Positions 9,014 through 46,255 of a stretch of DNA of 64,000 nt are shown one piece after another. Source of the DNA: Saccharopolyspora gloriosae (GTDB taxonomy: Bacteria; Actinomycetota; Actinomycetes; Mycobacteriales; Pseudonocardiaceae). The notes beneath the pieces are model-generated. The model worked only from the letters and a program-made list of their open reading frames with translations, had not been told where the DNA came from and did not search any database. A program made the translations under genes and the position numbers. Location of the stretch: the NCBI RefSeq assembly GCF_022828475.1, contig NZ_CP059557.1, positions 2,463,470 to 2,527,469 of the forward strand. The letters are read 5' to 3'. The number at the start of each line of letters is the position of its first letter. Within the stretch, counting starts at the first letter, position 1.

Positions 9014-9089
9014 CGTTCCTCCTTCTCCCGCTCTGCTGTGGAGAGCCTCCTGACCTGCACGGATCGTCCGGGGTCATGGTTCGTTGCCG

Positions 9090-9139: not shown

Positions 9140-9232
9140 TTGTTGGCGCGGCGTCGTTGTCGGCGTGGCCGCCGCCCCCACCACATCATGCCGCCCGTCT
9201 CCGGGGCGGAGTACCAGCGGAGAAGAGTTCCC

Positions 9233-10631: not shown

Positions 10632-12805
10632 TGCCCAGCCGACTCGACGGTCCGGTGAAGGCCACCGGCCGCGCCAAGTACGGCGTGGACCACAACTTCC
10701 CGGGCATGACCTACGGGTACCTCGTGCTCAGCACCATCGCGAACGGCGAGATCGCGTGGATGGACCTCACCGCCGCGCGGAGTGCTCCCGGTGTGCTCGC
10801 GGTGTACTCGCCGTTCGATCCGCTGGAGCTGGCCACGCCCACGCTCCCGGCGTTCGGCGACACTTGGGTTCCGTTGCAGGACAAGGAAGTCGCGTACTAC
10901 GGCCAGCCGATCGGTTTTGTGGTCGCCGAGACCTTCGAGCAGGCTCGCGATGCCGCGATGCTGGCCGAGATCGCCTACCACGAGCGGCCCGCGTCGACCT
11001 CGCTGGAGGACGGCCTCGCGACCGCCGAGGACGCGCCGAGTTCGGACCACGGCGGCGGACCCTCGCTGGAGGTGCTCGCCGACGGCATCGAGTCCATTGA
11101 GGACGCTTTCGCGGCAAGCCCGGTGGTGGTGTCGCAGACCTACTCGACGGCATCGCAGAACCACGCCCCGATGGAGCCGCATTCCGCCGTCGCGCAGTGG
11201 GATTCCGAGGGGCTCACCATCCACAGTGGAACTCAGGGTTCCGACATGCAGGCCGCCGAGCTGTCGATGGCCCTGCGGCTGGACCCGTCCCAGGTGCACG
11301 CGGTGAACCCGTACGTCGGGGGCGCGTTCGGCGGCAAGGGCCGCACCTCGGCGCCCGCGTTCCTGGCGGCGGCCGCGTCCAAGGAGCTCGGCAGGCCGGT
11401 GAAAGCCTCGCTGACCCGCGAGCAGGTGTTCACCGTGACCGCGGGCCGCGCGGCCACGGTGCAGGAGGTCACGCTCGGCGCGGAGCGGGACGGCACGTTC
11501 GTCGCGGTCCGCCACGACTCGTGGTGCAGCACCGGCATCGACCGGTCCTTCGTGGAGCCGACCTCGCACGGCACCTCCCGCGAGTGGTACGCCACGCCGA
11601 ACCTGTCGCTGCGGCAGAAGATGGTGCCGCTGAACCTGCCGCCGACCACCTTCATGCGCGCTCCCGGCGAGGCGCCCGGCTCCTTCGCGCTGGAGAGCGC
11701 GGTCGACGAGCTCGCGGTCGCGCTGGAGATGGACCCGATCGAGCTGCGGCTGCGGAACAATTCGCTCGCGCCGCCCGGCAAAGACCTGCAATGGTCGAGC
11801 AAGTACCTCGACGACTGCTTCCGGATCGGCGCGCAACGCTTCGGCTGGGACCAGCGCACTCCGGGCGGGCGCACCGACGGCGACTGGCTGGTCGGGGTCG
11901 GTACGGCCACGGCCATGTTCCCCGCGCTGCGCTTCCCGGCTTCGGTGCGGGTCACGCTCGGCGCGGACGGCCGGGCGGAGGTCGCGACCAGCGGCGCGGA
12001 CCCCGGCACCGGTTTGCTGACGGTGCTCTCGCTGGTGGGAGCCGAAACGCTCGACATCGCCCCGGAACGGGTGACACCGCGGCTGGGTGACTCGTCGCTG
12101 CCGCCGGGCGGCATGTCCGGTGGCTCCACGGCCACCGCCAGCGCGGGCTCGGCGGTGATGGTCGCGGCGTCCTCGGCGCTCGACGCACTGCTGTCGCTGG
12201 CCGCCGAGCCGGGTGCGCCTTTCGAAGGCGCGGAGGTCACCTACGCCGACGGGCAGCTGTTCGCCGACGGCCGGAGCATGCCGTTCGGCGAGCTGCTGCG
12301 GGCCATCGGCCGCGATTCGCTGTCGGCGACGGGATCCTCGGCGCCGGGCGAGGAGCTCACGAAGCACTCGTTCAGCTCCTTCGGCGCCCAGTTCTGCGAG
12401 GTCCGGGTGCACCGCTGGACTCGGGAGGCACGGGTGTCGAGGCTGCTCGGGGTGTTCGACGCGGGCCGGATCATCAACGAGAAGGCTGCCCGCAGCCAGC
12501 TCAGCGGCGGCATGATCTGGGGCGTCTCGGCGGCGCTGCACGAGGGCATGGAGGTCGAATCGAACGGCCGCATCGCCAACGGTGACTTCGCCGGGTACCT
12601 GCTGCCGGTGCACGCGGACATCCCCGACATCGACGTGCGTTTCGTCGAGCACCCGGACACCCTGCACAACCCGGTCGGAGCCCGGGGCGTGGGCGAGATC
12701 GGCGCGGTCGGCATGGCGGCCGCCGTGGCCAACGCGATCTACAACGCCACCGGAACCCGAGTCCGCCACATCCCGATCACCATCGAGGACCTGCTGGAAA
12801 ACTGA
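10631..12805 (+). CDS. xanthine dehydrogenase family molybdopterin-binding large subunit
   Basis: 724 aa from ATG 10631 overlapping preceding stop (ATGA); Ald_Xan_dh_C/C2 patterns (GGAFGGKG, ...GVGEIG); long six-frame ORF trimmed. Confidence 0.85.
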   Translation: MPSRLDGPVKATGRAKYGVDHNFPGMTYGYLVLSTIANGEIAWMDLTAARSAPGVLAVYSPFDPLELATPTLPAFGDTWVPLQDKEVAYYGQPIGFVVAETFEQARDAAMLAEIAYHERPASTSLEDGLATAEDAPSSDHGGGPSLEVLADGIESIEDAFAASPVVVSQTYSTASQNHAPMEPHSAVAQWDSEGLTIHSGTQGSDMQAAELSMALRLDPSQVHAVNPYVGGAFGGKGRTSAPAFLAAAASKELGRPVKASLTREQVFTVTAGRAATVQEVTLGAERDGTFVAVRHDSWCSTGIDRSFVEPTSHGTSREWYATPNLSLRQKMVPLNLPPTTFMRAPGEAPGSFALESAVDELAVALEMDPIELRLRNNSLAPPGKDLQWSSKYLDDCFRIGAQRFGWDQRTPGGRTDGDWLVGVGTATAMFPALRFPASVRVTLGADGRAEVATSGADPGTGLLTVLSLVGAETLDIAPERVTPRLGDSSLPPGGMSGGSTATASAGSAVMVAASSALDALLSLAAEPGAPFEGAEVTYADGQLFADGRSMPFGELLRAIGRDSLSATGSSAPGEELTKHSFSSFGAQFCEVRVHRWTREARVSRLLGVFDAGRIINEKAARSQLSGGMIWGVSAALHEGMEVESNGRIANGDFAGYLLPVHADIPDIDVRFVEHPDTLHNPVGARGVGEIGAVGMAAAVANAIYNATGTRVRHIPITIEDLLEN

Positions 12806-12814
12806 TCATCCGCT

Positions 12815-12854
12815 CGAAGAAGACGCCTGGTCGTTCGGCCAGGCGTCTTCTTCG
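12815..12854 (+). terminator. strong hairpin downstream of molybdoenzyme large subunit
   Basis: 16-nt perfect inverted repeat CGAAGAAGACGCCTGG / CCAGGCGTCTTCTTCG with 8-nt loop, 10 nt after the stop codon at 12805. Confidence 0.6.
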
Positions 12855-13050
12855 TCCGCACGCCGGTTCAGAGGCTTCTGGGCCCGCGCAGAACCCGTTC
12901 GTAGAACGCCTCGACCGGACCTGGCAAGAGTTCACCAGGATCGATCGTCCGGGCGAACAGCGTTATGTAACCGGAGTTGGCCGTCTGTGTCGAACAGTTG
13001 GGATGCAGTCGTGGCGGCGCCCTGGGGGAGTCGTTGAGTGGGGGCATCGG

Positions 13051-13283
13051 TCACCTCGGCGGATTCGCCCTGGCCCAGTCGCGGGCTTTGCGGGCGACGT
13101 CGTGGTCGTCGTTCCAGGCGCGAGCGACGGGAACAGTATCGAGAAGGGCGTGGTCGCCGCGTGTTCCGCGTTGGTCCCCGGAGTGCACCGTGAAGGCGAT
13201 ATCGGGGCGCCCCCAGCGCACGGTGATGTCGCGTTCGGGCAGGTAGTGCCAGGCGCAGGGCAGCCCGTAGTTGCGGGGTTTCA
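13051..13283 (-). CDS. hypothetical small protein (77 aa)
   Basis: Short ORF with strong GC3 bias (~85%) and GAGGA 4 nt upstream of ATG; W/H/D-rich composition unlike GC-frame artefacts. No recognisable domain. Confidence 0.3.
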
Positions 13284-14000
13284 TGGAAGTCCTCGCGGGA
13301 AGGCGCAGCGCCGAGGGTTGCTGCGTGGGTGGGGTGTTCCGTGATGCGTCGGGGGCCGGCCGCACGGCCCGGGGAGGGAGAGGACCGTGCGGCCGGAATG
13401 CCGGACAGCGCTCGGGGGAGGGAGAACGCCGCCCGGCCCCCGGATCGGGACTGACCGAAGGACTGGTCAAGTGCCGATCCTTCCGGCGGGGATGGTCGGG
13501 GTTCTCCCCGCCGGAATCTGGTGCCGCCTGGAGGTAGGGCTGAAGGCGGCCCGGGGCTGCTAATGACGATCAGGTGGAACCAAGCAGTCTGGGACGGATC
13601 GAGGCAGGTTCGCGCGTAGCGGTCGAAGGTTCTGGCGAGCCCGCGCAGCTCAGCGGCCAGCTGGCTGCAGTCCCTGGTACGGACCTGACGCGAGTCGGCC
13701 AAGACTGTGGTCAACGCCCCGAGCCGAGCACGAGCCCGCGAAGCCTGGTCGACGACCTCACTGGTAGTCGGGGAAGCGTCCATTCCAGTGACGGACAGGT
13801 ACTCGGTTCTCCGCGCCATTGTTCGCCTCTTCCGTTGAATTCCTCGGTGTCGCAGCAACTACAGAACCGCAGTTCAGGTGCCCATTCCACCCCGATGCCC
13901 GGTGATCTTGCGGGACGTGAAATCCCTGTTGAACCGGGAGGAAACGCGGCACACTGCTGATCACATAGAGTCGCCGCGATCCACGGTGGAAGGGGAACCG

Positions 14001-15017
14001 ATGCCAACCGCGATCCGCAGTGTGCGGCAAGAACAGCGGAACTTGTCAGCCGAGCTTCGCGCCCGGTCGAAGACGTGGGCAGAGGTGGCGGCGGTGTTCG
14101 CCGAGCGCTATCACGTCAACATGCGTGCGGCGTTCCGCCTTGCGCATGGGTGGAGCCAGCGCGAAGCGGCCGACGCCTGGAACGAACGCTGGCCCGCCGA
14201 TCTCAAGACATTTAAGAACTTCTCCTATTGGGAGCAGTGGCCTGCCGACACCGGGCACGCCCCTTCCCTGGAAGTGCTGGGCAAGCTAGCCGCGCTGTAC
14301 GCCTGTCGGCTGTCCGACCTCGTCAGCGACGTGGCCGACTTCCGCTCGGCCGACACCGCTCACCGGCAGAACGAGCAGCTCGCAGCCTTGAACAGCGCCG
14401 ACGACTCAGTGTGCGAATTCGTCACCAGGCTTGACCAGATCGACGTCCACGAGCTGGCGAATCTGGCTACTGCGTGGGCGCGGAGCAACGGCAACAGCCT
14501 CGACCGTCGTTCCCTGTTACTGAAGGTCAGCGCCGCTCTTTCGCTCGCCTCGACCAGCCCCGTCCTCACCGACGATGCGGAAGCCCATGCAGCTTCGCTG
14601 CCGCAGGCGAGTGACGATTTCTCCGGTATCTGGCACAGCCGATACGTCTACCCCAGCACCGGTCGCGGCAACAACTTCACCGGCGAACACTACGTCGTCG
14701 TACGCCAACACGGTGCCCGGCTCCTGGGGCAGAGCGTGCCGCACACGCTCGGGTCACGCCTGCGGCTCGACCTCGGTGTCGAGAAGTCCGTCGCCACGGG
14801 AACCTGGCGGGAAAACACCTCGCCCACCGGTTACTACAAGGGCGCCGCGTTCCACGGCACCCTGCAAATGGTCGCTGACCCCTCCGGTCGTCGTATGACC
14901 GGAATGTGGCTCGGGTTCGGCCGCGACTTCAGCATCAACAGCGGAGAATGGGAACTCACCTTGTGCGAGACCACGATCTCTAAGACCGCCCAACGCGCCT
15001 ACCACGACAAGGTCTGA
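14001..15017 (+). CDS. XRE-like HTH-domain regulator with uncharacterised C-terminal domain
   Basis: 338 aa from ATG 14001 (GGAAGGGGA upstream); N-terminal HTH-like segment ([10 protein letters not shown]); lower-GC than surroundings. Confidence 0.45.
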
Positions 15018-15021
15018 CGGT

Positions 15022-15939
15022 TCAGCTCAGCACAGCCACGATCGTTGTCCCCGGCGCGAAGTCGCCGGACCCAATCCGCTGGAACACGCCGGACATCATC
15101 TTGGCCTCATATACCCAGTCTAGGGCGATACCGTGCCTGGACTGGAAATCCGAGATGAAGCTGTCCAGCTCAGGCTTGCGCTTCGCGTAGCCCCCGAAGT
15201 GGAAGTCGTGGTCCAGCTCCCAGTTGCCGGTCGTCACACCGAATCCCTCGCGCTGTAGTCGCCGTACCTCGCCAGCGAGGTACTGTCCGCCCTTCAAGAC
15301 GGTGAAGCCGAGAGCGCGTTGATGTCCTGCGAGTCCAGCAGCGATGGCGGCCACCGTGCCGCCACTTCCTGTAGCGCAGCACACGACGTCAACATCGACA
15401 TCGATCTCATCCACGACCTCGGCGCAGCCGCGAACGCCAAGTCCGTTGCTACCGCCCTCCGGCAGGAAGTAGCAGGGACCGAATTCCGCTGCGAGCGCGC
15501 CCAGCACGTCAGGTTCGGTCTTGCGCCGGTACGTGCCGCGATCCAAGTAGGTCAGCATCATCCCCCGGCCAACGGCGTAGGCCAACGACTCGTTGAGCGG
15601 TAGGTGCTCCTCACCCCGAACCACTCCGACCGTTTCGAACCCGAAGTAATGCCCTGCTGCAGCCGTCGCCCGGAGATGGTTCGAGAACGCCCCGCCGAAC
15701 GTCAGCAGACGGCTGTCCCTTCGGTCCTTCGCCGCGGCCAGGTTGTACTTCAGCTTCCGCCACTTGTTGCCAGGCACTTCCGGATGGAGGAGGTCATCCC
15801 GCTTCAGCCAAACCCGCACACCGCGCTCGCTCACGCGCTCATCACGCAGTTCAACCAGCGGCGACGGCACCACCACCAGCCCACTGGCCTCAGCCTCCGT
15901 CGGATCCACAGTCCGAGGATAAGGCGCCGGGCGGGTCAT
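15022..15939 (-). CDS. PLP-dependent ACC deaminase/D-cysteine desulfhydrase family enzyme
   Basis: 305 aa; PALP fold pattern, lysine motif FSNHLRATAAAG, GGSNGLG glycine loop; trimmed from a 461-aa six-frame ORF. Confidence 0.75.
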   Translation of the reverse strand: MTRPAPYPRTVDPTEAEASGLVVVPSPLVELRDERVSERGVRVWLKRDDLLHPEVPGNKWRKLKYNLAAAKDRRDSRLLTFGGAFSNHLRATAAAGHYFGFETVGVVRGEEHLPLNESLAYAVGRGMMLTYLDRGTYRRKTEPDVLGALAAEFGPCYFLPEGGSNGLGVRGCAEVVDEIDVDVDVVCCATGSGGTVAAIAAGLAGHQRALGFTVLKGGQYLAGEVRRLQREGFGVTTGNWELDHDFHFGGYAKRKPELDSFISDFQSRHGIALDWVYEAKMMSGVFQRIGSGDFAPGTTIVAVLS

Positions 15940-15968
15940 GAAGGAGGTAAAGGCGGGCCTCAACGGAA

Positions 15969-16991
15969 CTAGGCGTCGTCGCCCCGTGAGATGGCCAGCG
16001 CGGCGGCCTTCACCGGTGCCCAGCCGCTGCGGGTCTCGTGCCTCTTGCCGTCGTCGGCGTTCCAGTAGTTGAGGTCGTAGTCGCCGTCGTCGTCGCCGGG
16101 ATCGCCGTCGGGGTTCTCCCCGTTGTTCTTGAGCGTGCGGATTCCGCAGTGCGTGACTTGTCGCTCGGGCTCGTTGCAGGCGTCGTTGGCGGGCGTTCTG
16201 TTGCTGTCCCAGTACCGGTACTTGTGATCGGCGTGGTGGCCCAGGTCGATGGCCGAGTTCCCGTTGACCGTCTCGTCCTGGTTGGATCCGACGAAGCTCC
16301 AGTCCGTCGATTTCGCCCAGTCGTCGGTCAGCTTGTAGTCGTGCAGCACGTCGATGAACTTGGAGTCGGGGTTCATCTGCTGCCACTGGGTCGTGCCGTT
16401 GTTGCACGAGTCCTTGGGATCGTCCTTGTCCTCGCAGATCACACCGTTGTGCGGAGTTCCGAGGGTGACGATCTGGTCGACGTTGATCTTCGGGAAGTTC
16501 TGTTCGCCCCAGTGCTCGTGGCCGAACATCGCGGTTCGCGTGATCAGCCCGCCCATCGAATGAGCCACGATGTTGACCGGTTCGTCGCCGTGCTTCTTCT
16601 TGATGTAGGCGGCGAGGTCTTGGGCGATGTACTGGATTTTGGTGTCGCGGGTGGCGTCGTTCTCATCCGCGGGATTGATGTCCACGTCGCACTTGTCGTC
16701 CGGGTAGTAGCCCACGGTGATGAGCTGTTTCTCGTCCCAGCCGTGGTCCTTGAAGTAGTCCAGCGCCGGACCCCACGTCTTGGAGCAGTTCTTTCCCTTG
16801 TCCTTGTTGCCGTCGCCGTCCACGTCCTCGTAGCCGTAGCCGTGCACGAAGTAGACGGGCAGGTCCTTGGCGCCCTTCTCGGCTTCGGTTCCGGCTGCCT
16901 GGGCGCTCAAGGCAGGTCCGGCGAGCGCTATCAGCGAGGTCGTGGACATGACGGCGATGAACCGCGATGATTTGTTGAACACAGTTGCCAA
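15969..16991 (-). CDS. secreted lipase, Lipase_2 (Bacillus LipA-like) alpha/beta-hydrolase
   Basis: Signal peptide then PVYFVHGYG and VNIVAHSMGG (GxSxG nucleophile elbow) as in Bacillus LipA; D/N/K-rich composition and lower GC. Confidence 0.75.
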   Translation of the reverse strand: MATVFNKSSRFIAVMSTTSLIALAGPALSAQAAGTEAEKGAKDLPVYFVHGYGYEDVDGDGNKDKGKNCSKTWGPALDYFKDHGWDEKQLITVGYYPDDKCDVDINPADENDATRDTKIQYIAQDLAAYIKKKHGDEPVNIVAHSMGGLITRTAMFGHEHWGEQNFPKINVDQIVTLGTPHNGVICEDKDDPKDSCNNGTTQWQQMNPDSKFIDVLHDYKLTDDWAKSTDWSFVGSNQDETVNGNSAIDLGHHADHKYRYWDSNRTPANDACNEPERQVTHCGIRTLKNNGENPDGDPGDDDGDYDLNYWNADDGKRHETRSGWAPVKAAALAISRGDDA

Positions 16992-17614
16992 CCCCTCAGT
17001 TTCCCCAGTTGCGAGTGGCCGTACGGCACCGATCTTTTCGCGGCCGACACGCTAGCAGGGCCGGATCGTGCTGTGGGGTGGATCGCCCGAGGTCCGAAGC
17101 GGATCGGCGTGAAGTTCCTTCGCGGGCCGGGACCGGTGAAAAGGACACTGCCGGCACGGATTCGACGCTCAGATCGGTGCGTCGGATCCGCATGGGGACC
17201 AGGAATCGACCGGTGACGTCGCGTAGTTCCTCTTCGTCGTCGGGGTCATCGAGTTCGCTGAGGTGACCAGAAACCTCCGCATCCGCGAAGCGATCAAATC
17301 CGGCGTCCGAGCCATGTGATCCGAACCGGCGACCGATTCCGAGAAGGCGCGGATCGGCCGGACGTCCAGTGCGAGTGCGGCTTCGGCCGCTGCGCGGATC
17401 GGCCGCCGTCCGCAGGCGACAGCCTCTCGCGTCGACGGCGCAGGAACTCGGCGAGACCGGGCGGATCGATCATTCGGCGAGCGTGAGCAGAACTGCCGCC
17501 GGAGCCAGGACCACGTTGGTCGTGGACGGGGTGGTTATGAGTTCGGTGGTGGCCGGTTCGTGCTGCGATGGTGTGGAAGGTCTCGTGCGCACCCCGTCAC
17601 CCTGAACCGGGGTT

Positions 17615-22889: not shown

Positions 22890-24065
22890 ATGGACATCGA
22901 GTTCAGGTTCGAAGCTCGGGAAGGCGACGACAGTTCACACGATGAGCTTCGAACGCTCTACGCCCATCTGGGAGGCGACTTCGAACTTCAACGGCACGCG
23001 CGCATATCCGTTCGGCGCGAGTCGTTGCAGTCGGGAGAGCTGGGCGCTGCGGAGGTCGTACTGGCCGCCGTGTCCGCCGGCCTGGGGGTGGGCCGGCTCG
23101 CGATCGCCATCAGGGCGTGGCGCGACGCGATGAACCACCCGACGGCGCTCGCCCTCACCGGCCGGTCCAGCGGGTACGCGCTCGCGGACAACGATCCCGG
23201 CCGCGTGTTCCCGGTGGAGCTCGGCGATCCCGAAGAGCTGAACGTCGCCGCGGACACCGCCCTGACGTTGCGCGGCACGGATGGCAGACCCTACGGGGGT
23301 CGAATCGACGGCGAGGGCATGGTCGTCGAGCCCGGCACCGACACCGTGCTGGTCGGCTCGGAGAAGGGGCCGTCGATCCGCCGTTTCCGGCTCAGCGACG
23401 GGCACGAGGTGGGAACTCCGCTGCCCATTCCGGAGAAGCTGCGCACCGAGCCGTTCGGTGGAGCGCACCAGGGACGCACCACCGAGTCGCTGGCCGCGAC
23501 GGCCGATGGTCGCTACCTCTACGCGGGCTGGGAGGCGCCGCTCAACGACGACGGCGATCAACGAGGGCGAAACCGCCTGCGAATTCAGCGCTATCACGGT
23601 GAACCGGGCGGAAACTACGTCCCGGACCGCCAATGCGCGTACGAGACCAGCACCGGCATGTACTTGGCGGAGCTCGCCGTGACCGAGCAGGATCGGCTGC
23701 TCGCGCTGGAACGGCAGTACGTCGAAGGACTCGGCAACACGGTGCGAGTCGTCGAGCTGCGCCTCACCGACGACAAGGACGTGACGAACACTCCCGCACT
23801 GGCCGAAGTCTCGGCCGATGTGTTCGTCCGCAGCTCATTGCTGTTCAGCCTCGGCGACTGCCCGGCGGGCGGTCCAGAGGTGGTCGCCGGAAAACAACGG
23901 CAGCCGAATCCGTTGCTGGAGAACGTCGAAGGCATGGCCGTAGGCCCCGAAGAGGCCGACGGCCCGGCGAAGGGCTCGCGCCTGCTCTACCTGATCAGCG
24001 ACGACAACGAGAACAACGCCCAGATAACCCGCCTGTACACCTTCCGCATCCGGCTCACCGAATAG
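22890..24065 (+). CDS. EACC1-like N-terminal domain fused to phytase-like (esterase-like activity of phytase family) beta-propeller-type domain
   Basis: N-terminal ~105 aa (DELRTLYAHLGGDFELQRHARISV...GLGVGRLAIAIRAWRD) resembles, from memory, the 'effector-associated constant component EACC1' family; C-terminal ~285 aa has ENVEGMAVGP and LLYLISDDNENNAQITRLY motifs reminiscent of the phytase-like family. Confidence 0.5.
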   Translation: MDIEFRFEAREGDDSSHDELRTLYAHLGGDFELQRHARISVRRESLQSGELGAAEVVLAAVSAGLGVGRLAIAIRAWRDAMNHPTALALTGRSSGYALADNDPGRVFPVELGDPEELNVAADTALTLRGTDGRPYGGRIDGEGMVVEPGTDTVLVGSEKGPSIRRFRLSDGHEVGTPLPIPEKLRTEPFGGAHQGRTTESLAATADGRYLYAGWEAPLNDDGDQRGRNRLRIQRYHGEPGGNYVPDRQCAYETSTGMYLAELAVTEQDRLLALERQYVEGLGNTVRVVELRLTDDKDVTNTPALAEVSADVFVRSSLLFSLGDCPAGGPEVVAGKQRQPNPLLENVEGMAVGPEEADGPAKGSRLLYLISDDNENNAQITRLYTFRIRLTE

Positions 24066-25897: not shown

Positions 25898-26083
25898 CTG
25901 ATTCCTTACTCCGAATGGGCGGTAGGTCTTCCGGTGGAGTCGGCCCTGCCGCCAACATGGCCGAGGTGAAGATCGAACCGGTGCTCCGTTGACCGATGTT
26001 GTGGTCGGCCCGGCCGTGGAAGGAGCAGCGTGCCCAACTGCCGCCTGCGCGCGGCCGCGACCGCATCGGGTTGAGGAGTGCGA

Positions 26084-28852
26084 GTGCTGGATCCGCGCGC
26101 TGAAGCGGTATTGATCTTTGATCAGTCGGCTGGTCGGTTTCAGGATCGGACAGCCGACATATCCGCGGTCGAGCCTTTGGCGGACGGGCGGGTCGGCATC
26201 GTGTTCAACGGTGGCAAGCGCTATCCGTACGGATCGGGGCGTGTGCGGGCTCTTCGCGACCCGGAACGCATCGCGCTCAACGGAGAAGTTCGGGTCGAGG
26301 TGCGCGGAGCTGTCTGGGAAAGCGCCGTCGAGATCGCCACGTTCGCTGATTCGGAGGGCGCGTGGGCCAGGGTTTTCTACCGGCGCAAGGGAAACGAGAC
26401 GTACCGGACCTATCCTGATTCGGAAGTACGCGTTCTCACGTCCGCGACCGGATCCGGGGCGGCGGCCGAGGTGTTCCGCTACTGGCGGGACGTCGTGGCC
26501 GGGCTCCCCGGTGACGATCCGCTGGTGCGGCCGTACGGCAGGCTGAGTTTCGTCAACCCGGAGAGCGCGCTGGGGGCGTACCTGGCCGGTGCACCGATCA
26601 CGCCGCGCGAACCGACCGGTGTCGCGATCTTCCCGTTCCGGTGCAACCTGAGTCAGCGCCAGGCGGTCGAGAACGCCCTCACCCGTTCCGTTTCGGTCAT
26701 CCAAGGTCCGCCCGGGACCGGAAAGACCGAAACCATCCTGAACCTGATCGCCAACATCACCGTGCGAGATCGGACCGTCGGCGTCGTGTCGCACAGCAAC
26801 TCCGCCGTCGACAACGTGCGGGAGAAGCTCGTTGAACTGGGCTTCGGGCATGTGTTGGCGAGCCTCGGAAAACAGGAGAAGCGCAAGGAGTTCTTCGCCG
26901 GGCAGGCCGATCGCAACGCACGGGTCGCCGGCTTCGCCGCCGAGACTCCGCCGCCGCCCGAACCCGGGCGGCTGGCCGACGTGGACCGGCGCTTGCGCCG
27001 CCTGCAGTCCACCGAACGCACCTTGGCGCAGCGACGGCACGAGGTGGCGGCGTACGGATTGGAGCGGGAGCACTTCGAACGGCACCTGCACGGGGACGAG
27101 ATGCCCGACCTCTCCGGCCTCCCGCTGCTTCGCCGCTCCTCCGGGCGCATCTTGGACTACCTGGCCGAAAGCGAGCTGGAGCGCAACGGTGCTCGTCCCG
27201 GGCTGATTCGGCGGATCCGGAAGTACTTTCGCTACGGCTCGGTGCGCGGCCTCGACCCCGAGGACACCGACGTGGTCCTCCGGCTGCAACGTGCCTACTA
27301 CACGAAGCGGATCGCCGAGCTGGACAAGGAAATCGCGCAACTCGACGAGGAACTGAGACGAGCGGACTTCGACCGGTTGGCGCAGGAACATCGGCAACTG
27401 TCGGTGCAGGCCCTGCACGCTCACCTCGGCGCTCGGTACGGCGGGCTCGCGCGGAAGGAGTACGACGGGGAGACGTATCGGCGGAGCAAGGAATTCCGGG
27501 ACTTCATCGAGGATTACCCGGTCCTGTTGAGCACCTGCCACTCGTTGAGCTCCAGCATCGAGGACGGTTTCCTGCTCGACCACCTCATCATCGACGAGGC
27601 CTCCCAGGTCGACCCACTAGTGGCCGGATTGGCGCTGGCGTGCTGCCGCAACCTCGTCGTGGTGGGAGATGCCGAGCAGTTGCCGCCGATCCCGGCAGCC
27701 TCCGCAGCCGACCACGAGGCACCGAGCCCCGCGTACGACTGCAGACGGAGCATCCTCGGCTCGCTGGAGACGTTGTACGGCGAGGCGCTCCCGAGCGCGC
27801 TCCTGCGCGAGCACTACCGGTGCGACCCGGCGATCATCGGGTTCTGCAACAAGAAGTTCTACCGCGACGAGCTCATCCCTTACACGACCGGTGGCGACGG
27901 CCGCCCGATGATCGTGGTGCGCACGGTCGAAGGAAACCACATGCGCCGGCATCGGACCGGGGGCCGCTCGAACCGCCGCGAAGTGGAGGTCATCGAGACC
28001 GAAGTGATCCCGGACCACTGCGCCGAGGTCGACGCGGCCGACATCGGCATCACCACGCCCTATCGGCTCCAGGCGGACAAAGCCCGCGACCTGCTCGATC
28101 AGATCGCGTCCGACACCGTGCACAAGTTCCAAGGCAGGCAGAAGAAGGTGGTCGTGATGACCACCGTCCTCGACGAAACGTGGCGCGGTCGCAGCGGTTT
28201 GCCGTTCGCCGACGACCCGCACCTGATCAACGTGGCGGTGTCGCGGGCGATCGAGCGCTTCATCCTGGTGACGAACAACGACATGCTGCCGACCAGCCGG
28301 CACATCCGGGACCTGATCGGTCACATCCGCTACCACGATCTTGACGAGGACGTCGTGGACAGCGCGGTGGTCTCGATCTTCGACCTGCTCTACCAGCAGT
28401 ACTCGTTACGGCTGCGATCACTGGCCGGGCGGCTGAAGAACGAGCGGGCCTACAAGTCCGAGGACATCGCGTGGACCGTGCTCCACGAGGTCCTCGCCGA
28501 GCAGCGCTACGAACACCTGACCGTCGTCGCTCAAGTGCTGGTGAAGAGCCTGTTCCCGGACCTGAGCGTGCTCACGCCGGAGCAGGCGAAATACGCCGGG
28601 AATCGAGCATCGGTCGACTTCGTCATCTACAACCGCGTGACGAACCGGCCGCTGCTGGCGATCGAGGTCGACGGCTTCGCCTACCACGAGAACAAGCCGG
28701 AACAACTGCGGCGGGACGAGCTGAAGAATCAGATCTTCCGCACTCACGACATGCCGCTGTTGCGATTGCCGACCACTGGAAGCGGCGAGCAACGTCGAAT
28801 CCGGCAGGCATTGGACGAAGCCGAAACCCACTGGGCGCAGCAGGCGCAGTGA
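26084..28852 (+). CDS. SF1 (Upf1/DNA2-like, AAA_11/AAA_12) helicase with C-terminal DUF2726 (PD-(D/E)xK-like nuclease fold) domain
   Basis: Walker A GPPGTGKTE, DEASQ Walker B box, QGRQKKVVVMT motif VI region; C-terminal ...ASVDFVIYNRVTNRPLLAIEVDGFAYHENKPEQLRRDELKNQIF matches DUF2726; ~190-aa N-terminal domain unassigned; GTG start after GAGGAG. Confidence 0.8.
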   Translation: MLDPRAEAVLIFDQSAGRFQDRTADISAVEPLADGRVGIVFNGGKRYPYGSGRVRALRDPERIALNGEVRVEVRGAVWESAVEIATFADSEGAWARVFYRRKGNETYRTYPDSEVRVLTSATGSGAAAEVFRYWRDVVAGLPGDDPLVRPYGRLSFVNPESALGAYLAGAPITPREPTGVAIFPFRCNLSQRQAVENALTRSVSVIQGPPGTGKTETILNLIANITVRDRTVGVVSHSNSAVDNVREKLVELGFGHVLASLGKQEKRKEFFAGQADRNARVAGFAAETPPPPEPGRLADVDRRLRRLQSTERTLAQRRHEVAAYGLEREHFERHLHGDEMPDLSGLPLLRRSSGRILDYLAESELERNGARPGLIRRIRKYFRYGSVRGLDPEDTDVVLRLQRAYYTKRIAELDKEIAQLDEELRRADFDRLAQEHRQLSVQALHAHLGARYGGLARKEYDGETYRRSKEFRDFIEDYPVLLSTCHSLSSSIEDGFLLDHLIIDEASQVDPLVAGLALACCRNLVVVGDAEQLPPIPAASAADHEAPSPAYDCRRSILGSLETLYGEALPSALLREHYRCDPAIIGFCNKKFYRDELIPYTTGGDGRPMIVVRTVEGNHMRRHRTGGRSNRREVEVIETEVIPDHCAEVDAADIGITTPYRLQADKARDLLDQIASDTVHKFQGRQKKVVVMTTVLDETWRGRSGLPFADDPHLINVAVSRAIERFILVTNNDMLPTSRHIRDLIGHIRYHDLDEDVVDSAVVSIFDLLYQQYSLRLRSLAGRLKNERAYKSEDIAWTVLHEVLAEQRYEHLTVVAQVLVKSLFPDLSVLTPEQAKYAGNRASVDFVIYNRVTNRPLLAIEVDGFAYHENKPEQLRRDELKNQIFRTHDMPLLRLPTTGSGEQRRIRQALDEAETHWAQQAQ

Positions 28853-29538: not shown

Positions 29539-29924
29539 GAAGTATCTCCCCAGTGTGGAGGTCCACCGCGAGTTCCGTTGCGGCGATCCCGCGCCCGGCG
29601 GGAAACCGGATTCCGCAACGGTGACTCGCGGATATCGACGGAGCCGGCCGCGATGACGTCCGGTACGCGAGTCGTGACCGAGAACGTGCGCGGAATCTGA
29701 TCACAATCGCGATCATGAACTTATCCGAGCCGAAAGCTGAAAGAACAGCCATCGGCCGTGAATGCCGCCCATCTTCACTCCTCAGAGTGATGGCGTCGGG
29801 TCGGGTGAAGACCTCCTTCCACCGGCTCCGCCCAGGTGGAGGAGGCATTCACCTGAGGCTTGTGAACCTTTTCGTCGGCCGTGTGCGTGATACCTGCGTA
29901 GGCGGTGTGAGGGGAGGGGATCAC

Positions 29925-37419: not shown

Positions 37420-39234
37420 TCAGTGGAGCGCGCCGCAGGACATGGCGTTCTCGTCGTCGGCGGCACCGGGCTCCAGGCGGATGTCCGAGAAGGTGACGTC
37501 CATCCTCTTGTCGGAGTACACGAGGAACGGAGTGTCGACCTGGTCCGGCTTCAGATCCTCGTTCAGTTCGTGCGAGGGCACGCCTTCCGGGCGCGGCGTC
37601 ACCTTGGTGAAGCAGTCCAATGGGATCTTGATCGGTGTCGGCGTTCCGGTCGGTAGCCGGCGGAAGAGATCGTCGGCGGGGACTTCACCTCCGCACGGGT
37701 GGCCGCAATGGATCGCGACCCCGGCGTAGTGGGCAGGCGGTGTGCGCACGTTCGCGGTGAACACGAGCGCCCCGTGATCGCTTAGGTAAGGCCGGAGGTC
37801 GATCAGCGGGGCGTCCTCCTTGGTCTGGATGTACAGCTGGGCGGGCTGGCCGTCGTTCCAGGTGGCGCGGAGCCCGCCGGGCTCCGGCCCGACGCGCATC
37901 GCACCGTCCAGCTCGTGGGAGAACTCCGTTCCCCGCCATTCGTCCTGCGCTGAAGCGATGAAACCGGAGTACCGGTCGGAGACGGCTCCGGCGTAGATCG
38001 TCTCGGCCCCGGGGCCGCTCGTGGCGATGGCCACGACACCGACGAGCAGCGCGGCCACCGCGGCGATGCCGGACACCAACCACGCCCGCCGGACCTTCGG
38101 CAACCGTGTCCTGGTCGACGGTGTTCCGGCGGAAGCACCGGGCACGCCGGTCGGCACCGAGCTCGGCGGAACAGCGGGGCGTGCCCGCGCGGACACCTGG
38201 GCGGCGCCGAGCGCCACGGTGTACTTCGGATGCAGCGCTCCCCGGACGGGTTTGCCGAATTCGCGGGCGAGCTGCTGAGCGACGAGCGGGACCCGGGAGG
38301 AACCGCCCGCGAGCAGCACGGCGGACAGCTGGTCGGCGCGGAGTCCCGCCGACGCGATGGTGCGGTGCAGCGCTTCGACGGTGTCTCCGACCGGGCGCGC
38401 GATCAGCGCGTTGAACTCTTGCCGAGTGATGCCGAGCTCGCGCGGACCGGTGGGCAGCGGGACGTTCAGGCGCACCTCGGGTTCGCTGGACAGCGATTCC
38501 TTCGCGCGCACGCACATCGTCTCGATCGTGGCCAGCGCGTAAGCCGACCGTGGATCGTCCGGGTCGAGTGCGCTGATCGCCCCGTCGAGCCGCCGGTCGA
38601 GGTGGTCGAAGATCGCCTGGTCGAAGTCCGCACCGCCGAGGTGGTCGATTCCGTCCGGAGTGCCGAGGATTTCCATCCGGCCCGCCCGCATGCGCAGGAT
38701 CGTGGAGTCGAAGGTGCCGCCGCCGAGGTCGTAGACGGCGATGACCTCGCCGTCGCCGAGGCGTCGTTCACTGGAGTAATGGGTGGCGGCGGCCTCGGGT
38801 TCGGTGACGAGGTGGAAATTCGGGACGTGCGCCAGCCGGGGGACCTCGGTGAAGTGCTGGCGCCGATAGCGCCCCCAGATCGCGGGGTAGGTGAGCACGA
38901 CCGAGTCCGGCGGCCCGCCCATGGACCGGATCGCGGTGGCGAGCACGTCGCGCAGCTGCGCGGCCATCAGCGCGGTGGGGGAGAAGCCGGCTCCGCCGAG
39001 GAACAGCGGCGTCGGATCGCCCAAGCGGCGCTTGAAGTTCCGGGCGACCTGGCCCGGGTCGGCGCCCGGGTACAGCGCGGCGTCACCGGTCAGCAACGCG
39101 CCGTCCGGTGTGCGGTAGGCCGCCGAGGGAACGACCACCGCAGGCGACATCGGCACCATGCGGGTGCCCGCCGGACCGCTGACGGCAGCGGAGGTGAACG
39201 AGGTTCCGAGATCGATCCCGAGGCCGTAACGCAC
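37420..39234 (-). CDS. Hsp70 family (actin-like ATPase) protein with C-terminal transmembrane anchor and extracytoplasmic domain
   Basis: 604 aa; N-terminal GIDLGTSFTSAAV phosphate-1 motif, DLGGGTFD phosphate-2, later a TM helix (WLVSGIAAVAALLVGVVAIA) and ~200-aa C-terminal domain; convergent with the sigma factor gene. Confidence 0.7.
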   Translation of the reverse strand: MRYGLGIDLGTSFTSAAVSGPAGTRMVPMSPAVVVPSAAYRTPDGALLTGDAALYPGADPGQVARNFKRRLGDPTPLFLGGAGFSPTALMAAQLRDVLATAIRSMGGPPDSVVLTYPAIWGRYRRQHFTEVPRLAHVPNFHLVTEPEAAATHYSSERRLGDGEVIAVYDLGGGTFDSTILRMRAGRMEILGTPDGIDHLGGADFDQAIFDHLDRRLDGAISALDPDDPRSAYALATIETMCVRAKESLSSEPEVRLNVPLPTGPRELGITRQEFNALIARPVGDTVEALHRTIASAGLRADQLSAVLLAGGSSRVPLVAQQLAREFGKPVRGALHPKYTVALGAAQVSARARPAVPPSSVPTGVPGASAGTPSTRTRLPKVRRAWLVSGIAAVAALLVGVVAIATSGPGAETIYAGAVSDRYSGFIASAQDEWRGTEFSHELDGAMRVGPEPGGLRATWNDGQPAQLYIQTKEDAPLIDLRPYLSDHGALVFTANVRTPPAHYAGVAIHCGHPCGGEVPADDLFRRLPTGTPTPIKIPLDCFTKVTPRPEGVPSHELNEDLKPDQVDTPFLVYSDKRMDVTFSDIRLEPGAADDENAMSCGALH

Positions 39235-43661: not shown

Positions 43662-44795
43662 TCAGGTGGAAGTCCTGCTCTGCTTCAAGGCGAGCACGAG
43701 CCGATCGATCTTCTTGCGGTACTCGTTCGTCGAGGCACCGTGGAACTTGCTGGGGTTGCGAGTGTCCGCGAACAGCGGCAGCGCCACGTCGTCGATGACG
43801 ACCGGGATGAAGCGTTGGCCGGTGGCGACCGACCTGCCCAGCAGCAGCTCGTACTCCTCGCGTATCCAGCCGTCGCTCATCGCGGCCCGGCTGAACACCA
43901 GCAGTCCGTGCCGGGAATCCATGACGGCCCGCCCGACGGTGTGCCCGCGTTGATCGCCGGGCAGCAGCACGTCGTGCGCGACCCGGAGTTCGCGGCGGCG
44001 CAGCTGGTCGACGAACTCGTCCGCCCACTCCGCGTCTTCGGCGGTGTGCGAGACGAAAACGTCGTACAAGAGATCGTCCGGGAGCTCGCCCGGCGCGACG
44101 GCGACCGGCGGATCGATGACCGGCGGATCGAGGGTGGCGGCGTCCTCCGTGATCGAGCGCGGGTGTGGAGCGAGTTCGATCCTCGCCACGTCGCCGCTGA
44201 GCCCGGTCAGAGCATCGCGGCCGGTCAGCAGGACGAGGGCGGTGTGATCGTTCGGCAGCAGCGGCCGTACCTGCTCGGCGTCTCGCGCGTTGTCCAGCAG
44301 CAGGAGCAGCTTCTTGCCGTTGAGTCCGGTCCAGTAGTGCTTGGATCGCTCGTCGAGGGTCGGCGCTTCGGCGTTCCGGTGATCGCCGAGACTGCGCAGG
44401 GCCATCGCGAGCGCGTTTTCGGGGTGCATGGGCGGCTTCGAACCGTGGCCGTGCAGATCGAGGTAGATCTCCCCGTCGGGAAAGGCCTCCCGGTTCCGCT
44501 GCGCCCACCGCACCGCGAGCTCGGTCTTTCCGGCGCCCGCCGCGCCGGTGATGAGGATCGGCGTGCCGTGGTCCGGATGCGCGGCGAGCAGTCCGTCCAA
44601 CCGGTCCAGTTCGTCCTCGCGGCCGGTGAAGTCGGCGATGCCTCGCGGGAGCTCATGCGGTATCCGGTGGCCATGGCCGTAAACGTTGACGGTGTCCACT
44701 TCGTTGGCTTGAACGGAGGTGCTGTTCCATTGGCGCACCGTGTTGCGCGTGTTCACGTTACGATCTCGGCGTCCGTCGTCGGGTGAATTCGCCAC
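43662..44795 (-). CDS. short STAND/NB-ARC-like P-loop NTPase fused to C-terminal TIR domain
   Basis: 377 aa; FTGREDELDRLDGLL...ITGAAGAGKTELA (Walker A), LLLLDNA (Walker B), LLTGRD; C-terminal YDVFVSHTAEDAEWADEFVDQLRRRELRV...FIPVVID is a TIR-like (TIR_2) domain; start position uncertain (5' ends of divergent genes overlap). Confidence 0.65.
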   Translation of the reverse strand: MANSPDDGRRDRNVNTRNTVRQWNSTSVQANEVDTVNVYGHGHRIPHELPRGIADFTGREDELDRLDGLLAAHPDHGTPILITGAAGAGKTELAVRWAQRNREAFPDGEIYLDLHGHGSKPPMHPENALAMALRSLGDHRNAEAPTLDERSKHYWTGLNGKKLLLLLDNARDAEQVRPLLPNDHTALVLLTGRDALTGLSGDVARIELAPHPRSITEDAATLDPPVIDPPVAVAPGELPDDLLYDVFVSHTAEDAEWADEFVDQLRRRELRVAHDVLLPGDQRGHTVGRAVMDSRHGLLVFSRAAMSDGWIREEYELLLGRSVATGQRFIPVVIDDVALPLFADTRNPSKFHGASTNEYRKKIDRLVLALKQSRTST

Positions 44796-46255
44796 GCTAC
44801 GATCCTAGCGAAGTTCGAGTTCCCGAGTGCCCGAATCCGCTGAAGATCCGCTGGTCGAACAGGTGCGAGTACGGTCGTGGCGGCCGATTCACGGGGGTGG
44901 TCGCAATCGACGTGTTCGTCTCTTACGCCAACGATGACTCGCGATGGGCCGAAGGACTCGCCGAACAGCTGCGCGATCGCGGACTGGAAGTCTATTTCGA
45001 CGAATGGCACCTGTTGCCGGGCGATCTGGTGGTGCATCAACTGGAACGTGCTTTCCGGGAATCCCACAGTGGAATCGCGGTGATCAGCCCCGCCTCGGAG
45101 AGTTCGGCGAGCGCCCGTGGCGAGTACGCCGCGCTCTACCAGGAATCCGTGCGCCGCGGCCTGCGGTTGATCCCGGTGCTGATCGGAGGGGCAACGCCGC
45201 CGCCGTTCGCCGGCACCCGGGTGAGCCTGGACTTCAGCGGAGTCGGCGGGGCCGCGTACGGCGAGGAGGTCGACCGGCTCGCCGCCGCCATCAAAGAACG
45301 CCCCGCCGCCCGCGCACAGGTCCGTCGCGCCGTCGTCGTCTGCTACGCCCCCGCCGATCAGGAGTACGGGCGACGGCTGGTGGAACAGCTCGAAGCCGCC
45401 GGGCTGCCCACCTGGTCGGAGGCGGACCTCCTGCTGGGCGACGAGCACTTCCCGGCGATCAGGAATCAGCTGCGGGACTCGATCGCGATCGTCGTCCTGA
45501 TGTCCCAGGAGTCGCAGGACAGCGACCACATCACCCGCATGATCCTGGAAGGCCAGATTCACCATCGGCCGTTCGTCCCGGTCCTGCTGCGTGGACGACG
45601 CAACTACCACCTGGCCAACACCTGGTACCTGGACGCCCGGGACGGCCGGCTCCCGGCGACCCGGGATCTGGCGGTTCTGCACCGACTTCACGACGCCGCC
45701 ACGGCGGAGACTTCGGCCGACAGCACCACCATGCCGCCCGCCCCGCCGCCGAATCGACGGGCACCGGCGGTCCGCGTCCCGGCGGCGACATCGCTGGGCC
45801 TGCTCGATCGCTACCTCACGGACCGGGAACTCGAGTACGCCGACCTGCTCACCACGACCGTGCTGCTGGACGCGGCGGCCCGCTTGGAGGACGGCTGGCT
45901 GCGACGGGCCGACGGGCGGACGCTGCCGCTCGACCTGCTCACCGCCATCGACGAGTTGTGGGCCGGGCACACCCGCGGCACGCAGGGCTTCACCGCACAA
46001 CGCGGCCAGGCCGAGGTCCGGCGGTCCGCGGACTTCCTCCGCGCGTCGCTGGCCTACGGATGGCGCGCGTCGGACCGCGAGCCGATTTCGCGCTATCAAC
46101 CGGGATTCACCGAGCGGGCAGGCCCCGGCGGCCGCGACGGCTTCTTCCCGACGTTGCGCAATCCCCAGAACGAGCACTTCCAGGACTGGTACGAACAGTG
46201 GACGCTGACCGTCACCGCCGTCCACCTCCGACTCCGAGACCAGAGCGGCACCTGA
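44783..46255 (+). CDS. tandem TIR-TIR domain protein with C-terminal GUN4-like domain
   Basis: 490 aa; two TIR-like modules (IDVFVSYANDDSRWAEGLAEQLRDRGLEVYFDEW...; VVVCYAPADQEYGRRLVEQLEAAGLPTWSE...), C-terminal ...LTAIDELWAGHTRGTQGFTAQR... resembling GUN4 (xIDxLWxxxSxGxFGFSVQ); true start may be internal (e.g. GTG before VVAIDVFVSY). Confidence 0.6.
   Translation: MNSPRYDPSEVRVPECPNPLKIRWSNRCEYGRGGRFTGVVAIDVFVSYANDDSRWAEGLAEQLRDRGLEVYFDEWHLLPGDLVVHQLERAFRESHSGIAVISPASESSASARGEYAALYQESVRRGLRLIPVLIGGATPPPFAGTRVSLDFSGVGGAAYGEEVDRLAAAIKERPAARAQVRRAVVVCYAPADQEYGRRLVEQLEAAGLPTWSEADLLLGDEHFPAIRNQLRDSIAIVVLMSQESQDSDHITRMILEGQIHHRPFVPVLLRGRRNYHLANTWYLDARDGRLPATRDLAVLHRLHDAATAETSADSTTMPPAPPPNRRAPAVRVPAATSLGLLDRYLTDRELEYADLLTTTVLLDAAARLEDGWLRRADGRTLPLDLLTAIDELWAGHTRGTQGFTAQRGQAEVRRSADFLRASLAYGWRASDREPISRYQPGFTERAGPGGRDGFFPTLRNPQNEHFQDWYEQWTLTVTAVHLRLRDQSGT

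Follow-up and report, generated by a model that had tools for sequence, protein, structure and literature searches.

A rare divergent pair of TIR-domain genes in Saccharopolyspora gloriosae and its relation to an actinomycete TIR-GUN4/SPFH cassette

TIR-domain enzymes that cleave NAD+ (NADases), such as AbTir, SARM1, SPARTA, and TIR-SAVED, need ordered oligomers, in which neighbouring TIR domains build composite active sites. Two further protein families enter the present comparison: SPFH proteins, which form large membrane-attached rings or cages on the cytoplasmic face, and GUN4, a Mg-chelatase cofactor and porphyrin- or bilin-binding protein of cyanobacteria and plastids. Here, we analysed a 64,000-nucleotide stretch of the Saccharopolyspora gloriosae genome (contig NZ_CP059557.1, positions 2,463,470 to 2,527,469 of the forward strand), hereafter called the window, in whose coordinates all of its features are given. 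At 43662-46255 it contains a divergent gene pair, named gene A and gene B, which together encode three TIR domains, one cut-down NB-ARC ATPase, and one GUN4-like domain. Gene B is a member of an actinomycete family that is otherwise linked to an SPFH membrane protein.

Of the systems described so far, those closest to the module are the NTP-dependent conflict systems of multicellular bacteria (PMC7159879, eLife 2020; PMC8195603, eLife 2021; Kaur, Burroughs, Iyer, and Aravind). Common parts are TIR effectors, Band7-like scaffolding, STAND-type NTPases, a bias towards filamentous actinomycetes, and GUN4 as a proposed ligand sensor fused to TIR, trypsin, caspase, or kinase domains; relatives of the TIR-GUN4 protein also share Trypco1, VMAP-M8, Hsp70, and DO-GTPase with those systems. 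TIR-GUN4 fusions had been noted before only for cyanobacteria, and GUN4 had been called cyanobacteria-specific (PMC7159879, PMC8195603). In the same papers Band7 figures solely as a fusion partner of vWA proteins, and the cassette described below, TIR-(TIR)-GUN4 with a transmembrane SPFH protein and often a transmembrane TIR protein, is absent from them; the window locus, in turn, lacks the MoxR-vWA-VMAP, iSTAND, or DO-GTPase-GAP1 core. The initial annotation of the window had regarded a TIR-TIR-GUN4 architecture paired with an NTPase-TIR as probably undescribed. The cyanobacterial fusions (PMC7159879) take away part of this claim, but full-text literature searches, within the searchable libraries, returned no description of a TIR-GUN4 and SPFH cassette, of SPFH together with an NADase, or of GUN4 in Streptomyces or in actinomycete defence.

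Comparison with bacterial TIR NADases (AbTir/PdTIR, ThsB, TIR-SAVED, SPARTA TIR-APAZ, and SpbK) revealed the same TIR fold with a Glu in helix αC, and oligomerisation-type activation would be expected. Unlike those systems, the A/B pair has no ThsA, CD-NTase, SAVED, Ago, or other known partner, and its three TIR domains, one of them with a displaced Glu, are spread over two proteins, where they are joined by a GUN4-like domain, a nucleotide-binding domain (NBD), and, elsewhere, an SPFH protein. Gene A shares a P-loop with Walker A, Walker B, and sensor-1 motifs with STAND/NB-ARC proteins (AfsR, Apaf-1, CED-4, plant TIR-NLRs, and Avs/bNACHT), but it has the NBD only, and its TIR domain is C-terminal, whereas that of plant TIR-NLRs (TNLs) is N-terminal. 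Membership in known classes of defence system was rejected: for Thoeris there were only weak ThsB-type TIR matches and no ThsA (SIR2-SLOG or Macro-TM) among the neighbours; for CBASS and Pycsar there was no CD-NTase or cyclase in the locus, the SAVED-TIR and Pycsar models matching the TIR part only; and for TIR-containing retrons the TIR portions alone matched, with no partner genes.

The gene B family comprises 80 database clusters, and the window protein is 45-70% identical along its full length to 80 members. A scan of one genome per species (185,579 species genomes) gave 86 matches, which puts the family in at least 86 actinomycete species, with genera including Streptomyces, Nonomuraea, Actinomadura, Streptosporangium, and Kitasatospora. 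For a survey of gene neighbourhoods, genes were called in 79 loci, neighbours were clustered, and an open reading frame (ORF)-independent tblastn census was performed; 70 loci were evaluable. This analysis revealed that in 70 of 70 loci a gene for a protein of ~620 aa, here called C0, lies directly downstream of gene B on the same strand. C0 is an SPFH/Band-7 (flotillin-like) protein (Band_7, 4e-12). A TIR protein of ~190 aa, here called sTIR, was encoded in at least 43 of the 70 loci, either just upstream of gene B or convergently after C0. Whole-ORF hydropathy analysis identified a strongly hydrophobic N-terminal segment in 65 of 67 C0 proteins and an N-terminal transmembrane segment in 31 of 36 sTIR proteins, and since K/R residues follow the hydrophobic segment in both, the TIR and SPFH parts are placed in the cytoplasm. 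The same analysis showed no hydrophobic segment in gene A or gene B, whose products are both soluble. In S. clavuligerus the three genes are packed into one operon on the megaplasmid pSCL4 (BB341_RS28880-90), with sTIR and B overlapping by 4 bp and the SPFH gene 33 bp after B, all annotated with generic names only.

The initial annotation had presented the NTPase-TIR and TIR-TIR-GUN4 pair as a system in itself. With SPFH adjoining gene B in all 70 loci, the pair is better described as a rare derivative of a conserved SPFH cassette: the window has the TIR-GUN4 orthologue and a TIR domain of the sTIR lineage, and it lacks the adjacent same-strand transmembrane SPFH gene. The cassette itself varies. 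Short-form B proteins (~320 aa) consist of a domain of the type of TIR2, the second TIR domain of gene B, followed by GUN4; C0 is still found downstream, and there is no sTIR. In Streptosporangium the TIR2-GUN4 core is fused behind Trypsin_2 and VMAP-M8, and three loci of this genus (L073, L077, and L079, at ~6600-16000) carry, in this order, Trypco1, the Trypsin_2, VMAP-M8, TIR2-type, and GUN4 fusion, the C0 SPFH protein, an Hsp70-like protein, a protein of 766-850 aa of unknown nature, and a DO-GTPase2-like P-loop protein. Through the Trypsin/VMAP-M8 fusions and the Trypco1, Hsp70, and DO-GTPase neighbours, the module thus sits within the network of Kaur/Aravind conflict systems.

Turning to the gene pair, the longest ORFs extend over 43662-44795 on the minus strand (377 codons) and 44783-46255 on the plus strand (490 codons), and their 5' ends overlap by 13 bp. 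This overlap results from taking the longest-ORF starts. Identical database proteins of S. gloriosae are shorter, with 364 aa for gene A (P0081, 100% identical; 43662-44756, minus strand) and 452 aa for gene B (P0001, 100% identical; 44897-46255, plus strand), and because database models and homologue alignments agree, the probable starts are near 44756 and 44897. The divergent genes A and B are therefore most likely separated by a divergent promoter region of ~140 bp. The GC content at third codon positions (GC3) is 0.86 in gene A and 0.84 in gene B, which is typical of coding DNA in a genome of ~69% GC. The divergent TIR-domain pair first noted from the sequence alone is thus borne out by ORFs and coding signature, and all of the motifs then quoted are present (GAAGAGKT, LLLLLDNA, D[VI]F[VI]S[HY], and IDELWAGHTRGTQGFTAQR). 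AlphaFold models, one of the checks proposed at that stage, were confident for both proteins, with a predicted local distance difference test (pLDDT) score of 84.2 and a predicted template-modelling (pTM) score of 0.79 for gene B and a pLDDT of 80 for gene A.

Gene B encodes, as first annotated, two TIR domains and a GUN4-like domain, with TIR_2 matched twice and GUN4 once above the Pfam cut-offs. The TIR_2 match (9.5e-39) consists of two stretches above threshold, corresponding to TIR1 (44906-45298, plus strand) and the divergent TIR2 (45329-45700, plus strand). The best structural match of the gene B model in Foldseek was the active AbTir filament 7uxu, with a template-modelling (TM) score of 0.83 and a root-mean-square deviation of 1.9 Å, located in the canonical TIR1; the MAL and MyD88 adaptor filaments were also returned. 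Glu76 of TIR1 (codon 45122-45124, plus strand) is in register with PdTIR, the one protein to which the window residue was aligned residue by residue. At the family level, the TIR1 consensus has its Glu in line with that of 'WTNYEL' in the AbTIR chain, which we take to be the catalytic E208. TIR2 differs in several respects. Its first strand, βA, reads VVVCY rather than DVFxSY, and the position of the canonical Glu is occupied by Met215/Ile216 (45539-45544, plus strand), a column occupied by Ile or Val throughout the family (75 of 75). A shifted Glu lies 2-3 residues further along helix αC and is present in 73 of the 75; in the window it is Glu218 (45548-45550, plus strand), with the helix register taken from the secondary structure of the AlphaFold2 model.

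Across the whole set, the canonical catalytic-Glu column holds Glu in 3 of 3 A-type TIRs, 53 of 64 sTIRs, and 65 of 67 TIR1 domains. A search for a conserved catalytic Glu had been suggested at the outset, and it succeeded for the gene A TIR and for TIR1 of gene B and failed for TIR2, given its Ile/Val column. We presume that the αC Glu of the A TIR and of TIR1 is equivalent to AbTir E208 and SARM1 E642. NAD+ cleavage by the gene A TIR and TIR1 is predicted on the basis of this conservation.

The C-terminal part of gene B is an all-helical GUN4-like domain (45791-46240, plus strand), recognised by Pfam, by a profile search against PDB, and by Foldseek. The Pfam GUN4 model (PF05419) scored 38.5 bits against a cut-off of 29.2, with only profile positions 9-82 of 141 covered, whereas the relatives L071, L073, and L079 match positions 9-128. 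Profile comparison with PDB entries gave 7e2r (2e-10), 1z3x (7.6e-9), and 1y6i (1.5e-7), aligned over helices α1-α5 only, and in Foldseek the gene B model matched Arabidopsis GUN4 (7e2r) with a TM score of 0.58. Motifs common to solved GUN4 structures and the gene B family are AD..T, LP..L..ID.LW..HS.GR.GF..Q, and GW. The most conserved motif of the family is FFPTLRNPxxE..WY..W, and the GUN4 alignment of the window protein stops before it; in gene B the family-invariant FFPTLRNPQNE lies at 46142-46174 (plus strand).

Genuine GUN4 carries an LxNxLR motif at about the same position, and its Asn is essential to bilin binding (Asn211 in Synechocystis; PMC10156173). In the gene B family the invariant P-T-L-R-N-P-Q-N-E lies ~31 residues past GW, so that, judged by position only, L-x-N may be kept while LR is replaced. 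Gene B thus differs from GUN4 proper both in its host, a non-photosynthetic actinomycete, and in having the invariant PTLRNPxxE in place of LxNxLR. Because L-x-N may be kept but LR is replaced, tetrapyrrole binding by the GUN4-like domain is possible and not established. The similarity to GUN4 that had been read from the letters therefore stands above threshold; the porphyrin binding attached to it does not follow from an alignment limited to α1-α5 and a motif that is at best half conserved. No chelatase families were found among the scanned window genes and cassette neighbours, in scans that included no search aimed at ChlH. The PADLOC model of the validated anti-phage kinase PD-T4-6 (PDLC04062, positions 315-402 of 450) matched 45797-46070 of gene B (1.9e-6), which suggests that a known defence protein from non-photosynthetic organisms may already contain a GUN4-like domain.

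Gene A (minus strand throughout) encodes an isolated NB-ARC nucleotide-binding domain fused to a TIR domain. The AfsR-type NBD (44172-44660) contains Walker A (GAAGAGKT, 44523-44546), Walker B (LLLLLDNA, 44286-44309), and sensor-1 (LLTGRD, 44214-44231), all of them invariant in an alignment of six full-length relatives. It matched the NCBIfam AfsR model at 7e-35 over part of the model only, and PDB entry 8k60 (AfsR) at 4.1e-29, a match confined to the nucleotide-binding subdomain of AfsR (residues 286-447); it is ~50% identical to AfsR-family NBDs. AAA_16 scored 32.4 bits, slightly below its cut-off of 32.6, and Pfam NB-ARC scored 14.1 bits against 23.5. Foldseek searches with the gene A model returned the nucleotide-binding domains of Apaf-1, CED-4, and plant NLRs (~175 columns) as well as PdTIR (TM scores of 0.65-0.74). 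The NBD is followed by a Pro-rich linker that is predicted to be disordered (44067-44165; pLDDT <50 at residues 202-224 of the 364-aa model) and then by the TIR domain (43680-44066), which matched TIR_2 at 2.9e-17 (63.7 bits, cut-off 28). The S-x5-S-x-W-x3-E motif of this domain is canonical, and its W and E line up with those of PdTIR; the Glu codon is at 43854-43856 (E314 in the numbering of the 377-aa ORF).

No ARC1 helical or ARC2 winged-helix subdomain follows the gene A NBD, the 8k60 match ending at residue 447, and profile searches for repeat or sensor domains (TPR, WD40, LRR) gave no matches in gene A, which ends with the TIR domain. Profile and structure searches agree with the domain order first proposed, an AfsR/NB-ARC-like P-loop segment and then a C-terminal TIR without repeats. 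The accompanying description as 'short STAND-like' has to be dropped: with the ARC subdomains and the repeat domain missing, gene A does not qualify as a small STAND protein.

In a distance tree of 209 TIR domains, the gene A TIR fell inside the sTIR clade, distinct from TIR1 and far from TIR2. Since it is nested among sTIRs, gene A is an sTIR whose transmembrane anchor was replaced by a truncated AfsR-type NB-ARC domain. A second N-terminal swap on the same TIR lineage is represented by a metagenomic protein of 470 aa (P0087), which is 66% identical to the gene A TIR region and carries PNP_UDP_1 (nucleoside phosphorylase) in place of the NBD. In four loci of Streptomyces and Wenjunlia (L003, L042, L046, and L051, at ~12800-16000), the cassette has, within a few kb, a gene for an NB-ARC-type protein of ~710 aa, which lies beyond sTIR in L042, L046, and L051 and 3.4 kb downstream of B in L003. 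These neighbours were considered as donors of the gene A NBD; with 34-37% identity, against ~50% for AfsR-type regulators, they are possible but weaker candidates.

The A/B arrangement is rare, and a database search gave only five full-length relatives of gene A. The pair does recur, in ~6 loci (the window and L080 to L084) whose flanking genes form at least three distinct sets. L081 is an intermediate that has A, B, and SPFH together, with SPFH after B. The SPFH gene adjoining B is missing in the window, L080, and L082, and contig ends truncate L083 and L084. In the window the 3' neighbour of gene B encodes an FAD monooxygenase, and tblastn detected no SPFH remnant downstream of gene B.

Alignment of three loci (the window, L080, and L081) brought to light a near-palindrome of 16 bp, CGCTACGATCCTAGCG (44795-44810), which is conserved in the region between genes A and B. 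It holds back-to-back -10-like hexamers, TACGAT on the plus strand and TAGGAT on the minus strand, and is a candidate divergent promoter core or operator; the surroundings of the gene B start codon are likewise conserved. An E. coli-type promoter and terminator scan and an inverted-repeat scan of the intergenic region found nothing useful. Each of the two ORFs is intact, with every catalytic and NTP-binding motif retained across 5-6 orthologues with 55-70% identity. The ratio of nonsynonymous to synonymous substitution rates (dN/dS, NG86) was 0.37-0.62 for gene A and 0.29-0.50 for gene B; as dS is compressed at a GC3 near 0.9, these values are readable only against neighbouring control genes, which at the same divergence gave 0.49 (histidine kinase) and 0.42 (606-aa gene shared with L080). 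Since the A/B values match the controls, the two genes are under constraint like that of ordinary neighbours and are not pseudogenes.

Taken together, we read the A/B pair as the Saccharopolyspora-lineage version of a conserved actinomycete conflict cassette and as a likely oligomerisation-gated, NAD+-cleaving suicide or defence module, and we give this reading about an even chance of being correct. We infer here the NADase activity, the trigger, the oligomerisation, and the defence role. In the usual cassette, a soluble TIR1-TIR2-GUN4-like (or TIR2-GUN4-like) protein would serve as sensor-effector alongside a single-pass SPFH scaffold and, often, a membrane-anchored sTIR. At rest, the TIR domains would be dispersed or kept inactive. 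A trigger sensed by the GUN4-like domain, such as a small planar ligand or an invader protein, and/or a perturbation of the membrane would lead to higher-order assembly and TIR clustering. TIR2, with its non-canonical active site, would act as a pairing or nucleating TIR, and the Glu-bearing TIRs (TIR1 of gene B and the TIR of gene A) would form composite active sites that cleave NAD+, so that NAD+ depletion or an ADP-ribose (ADPR)-derived signal would stop growth. In the canonical cassette, proximity would result when the proteins are anchored together on an SPFH ring or cage on the cytoplasmic side of the membrane, and in the S. gloriosae version it would result from ATP-dependent self-association of the gene A NBD instead of membrane anchoring; in this lineage the SPFH partner would be dispensable or would work in trans. 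The frame of actinomycete TIR immunity and apoptosis-like systems, in which the initial annotation had placed the genes, fits these findings in general.

Several observations weigh against this reading. The window lacks the otherwise universal adjacent SPFH partner, and the pair could therefore work differently or less well. Oligomerisation is not known for a lone NB-ARC NBD without ARC subdomains. In L082 (2644-3803, minus strand) the gene A homologue consists of two overlapping ORFs, one for NB-ARC/AAA_16 (275 aa) and one for TIR (130 aa), which might reflect a frameshift, a true split of the gene, or a fault in the assembly. The main weakness is that short-form loci lack any TIR with the canonical Glu, from which it follows that the shifted Glu is itself catalytic, or else that the ancestral core function lies outside NAD+ cleavage. 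None of the A, B, and SPFH proteins has a whole-protein match to a validated defence system, and the SPFH partner matched none of the PADLOC (2023) models. The defence-island test of 117 flanking proteins gave only scattered defence or STAND matches and was not informative, so the flanks are not clearly defence islands, and no gene B relatives were found in phage genomes or IMG/VR viral contigs. The heterogeneity of the flanks, with 187 Pfam families among 117 neighbours and none in more than 7, is on the other hand in keeping with a conflict module, as is the megaplasmid location in S. clavuligerus; together with the absence from phages and the patchy distribution, this heterogeneity indicates that the cassette behaves as a self-contained accessory unit.

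Other explanations account for parts of the same data. A Thoeris-like pathway, in which the TIR domains make an ADPR-derived messenger and the response is executed by SPFH at the membrane or by an unlinked effector, would draw on weak ThsB-type matches (PADLOC ThsB, 7.3e-9; Pfam ThsB_TIR, 0.016 for gene B and 1.3e-6 for the short-form protein of L069). Three TIRs with differing active sites would suit a division of labour, and the invariant SPFH linkage would suit SPFH as the responder, but neither the cassette nor the vicinity of the pair contains a SLOG, Macro, SAVED, STING, or caspase-like effector domain, and A and B are intact and constrained in the window although no SPFH gene adjoins them. 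We consider this explanation unlikely. Somewhat less likely again is a physiological role outside immunity, with the GUN4-like domain reporting heme or porphyrin and adjusting NAD+ turnover or the organisation of the membrane in development or under stress. GUN4 fusions have been proposed as sensors of tetrapyrrole levels (Kaur et al., PMC7159879), the GUN4 match is genuine, the key Leu and Asn of LxNxLR may, from position only, persist in PTLRNP, and the chromosomal flanks hold mostly metabolic and regulatory genes. The Arg and the second Leu of that motif are replaced, however, and the GUN4-like region is also matched by the anti-phage PD-T4-6 model; furthermore, the patchy distribution (86 matches) and variable flanks are unlike those of a housekeeping regulator, and near relatives are fused to Trypsin/VMAP-M8 beside Trypco1, Hsp70, and DO-GTPase conflict genes.

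The loss of SPFH, which adjoins B in the 70 other loci and is missing in the window, L080, and L082, could also mean that the S. gloriosae pair is a non-functional remnant drifting towards decay, and the split gene A homologue in L082 and the fairly high dN/dS (0.3-0.6) point the same way. Intact ORFs, catalytic and NTP-binding motifs conserved in orthologues at 55-70% identity, dN/dS values equal to those of neighbouring control genes, the conserved intergenic palindrome and start-codon surroundings, and a C0-type SPFH paralogue 13 kb away all speak for maintained function, and we judge decay to be improbable. Least probable of all is that the TIRs are non-enzymatic homotypic modules that recruit proteins to the SPFH platform, as animal TLR adaptors do. 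The lack of the canonical Glu from every TIR2, the restriction of short-form cassettes to this type, and the return of MAL and MyD88 filaments by Foldseek would fit such a role; the strong conservation of the Glu in TIR1, sTIR, and A-type domains and the active AbTir NADase filament as best structural match do not. Moreover, the bacterial TIRs characterised to date are known as enzymes.

Extending the suicide or defence module reading beyond the pair, it is possible, though we hold it to be doubtful at present, that TIR-GUN4 with SPFH (and transmembrane TIR) constitutes a previously unrecognised membrane-associated immune system. A flotillin-like cage would then license the assembly of TIR NADases, either as a platform or by sensing membrane damage, and the GUN4-like domain would have been repurposed outside photosynthesis as a sensor of infection or of a ligand. 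The A/B pair would then be a natural experiment in which an ATP-binding NB-ARC domain provides proximity in place of membrane and SPFH scaffolding, and it would mark a step, within bacteria, towards TIR regulation of the NLR kind. If the suicide or defence module reading is correct, the cassette would offer a conserved and experimentally tractable TIR system from antibiotic-producing actinomycetes, with the three-gene operon on S. clavuligerus pSCL4 at hand, and would for the first time connect SPFH/flotillin scaffolds functionally with TIR enzymes, with a bearing on the role of bacterial flotillin-like proteins. It would also place GUN4-like domains beyond cyanobacteria and plastids and raise the question of what non-photosynthetic cells sense with them. 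Natural variants (transmembrane anchor or NB-ARC NBD, one or two TIRs, with or without SPFH) would allow the gating of TIR assembly to be dissected, a matter equally central to plant TNL and animal SARM1 biology. As the A/B pair is a rare derivative, the larger conserved module is of more interest than the pair.

Elsewhere in the window, a C0-type SPFH/Band-7 membrane protein is encoded at 31056-32807 (plus strand), unlinked to A/B (tblastn 40-44% identity, E 2.7e-118; Band_7 4.3e-11). It has an N-terminal hydrophobic segment (Kyte-Doolittle hydropathy, KD, 1.94) and belongs to a different C0 subclade, its nearest relatives being short-form partners (48-58% identity; L071 58%, L069 51%). The gene lies 13 kb from the A/B pair in another operon-like run (29715-35574, plus strand), which consists of an ORF of unknown function, the SPFH gene, PP2C, a Ser/Thr kinase with a weak TCAD9 match, and vWA. 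No TIR or GUN4 remnant was detected near it by tblastn. This SPFH protein could conceivably act in trans with A/B; because it is operonic with PP2C, kinase, and vWA, the same SPFH family serves different effector sets. The run resembles the TerY-P triad (vWA/TerY, PP2C, and Ser/Thr kinase) reported by Gao et al. 2020, but it contains no TIR or GUN4, and in the window cluster only the kinase matched PADLOC models, none of them a TerY-P model. The ORF that heads the run spans up to 444 aa and has a Zn-ribbon-like CxxC...CxxC C-terminal part, its N-terminal part being probably non-coding.

Two further genes of possible relevance to conflict lie, like the SPFH-PP2C-kinase-vWA genes, 10-20 kb upstream of A/B. 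One (22890-24065, plus strand) encodes an N-terminal EACC1 domain (Effector Associated Constant Component 1, 2.3e-10) fused to a phytase-like esterase (1.1e-46); the presence of EACC1 marks conflict systems of the Kaur/Aravind type. The other (26078-28852, plus strand) encodes a 924-aa superfamily 1 helicase (AAA_11/AAA_12) with a C-terminal DUF2726/restriction endonuclease-like part, which matched the PADLOC models MkoC (6e-53) and MkoA (4.7e-43) and is possibly a single-gene Mokosh-like defence protein. Closer to the pair, an Hsp70-like ATPase fused to an Exop_C/galactose-binding-like domain (37420-39234, minus strand) adjoins a gene for an extracytoplasmic function (ECF)-type sigma factor (36898-37398); the C0 SPFH gene of Streptosporangium loci likewise has an Hsp70-like gene directly after it. 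A tRNA scan found no tRNA genes, which could have been integration sites, in the window. At 14000-17500 the GC content dips to 0.62-0.65, compared with ~0.69-0.72 elsewhere in the window, and this stretch, which holds a lipase/PGAP1-like hydrolase gene (15969-16991, minus strand) and ORFs without a Pfam match, was possibly acquired horizontally.

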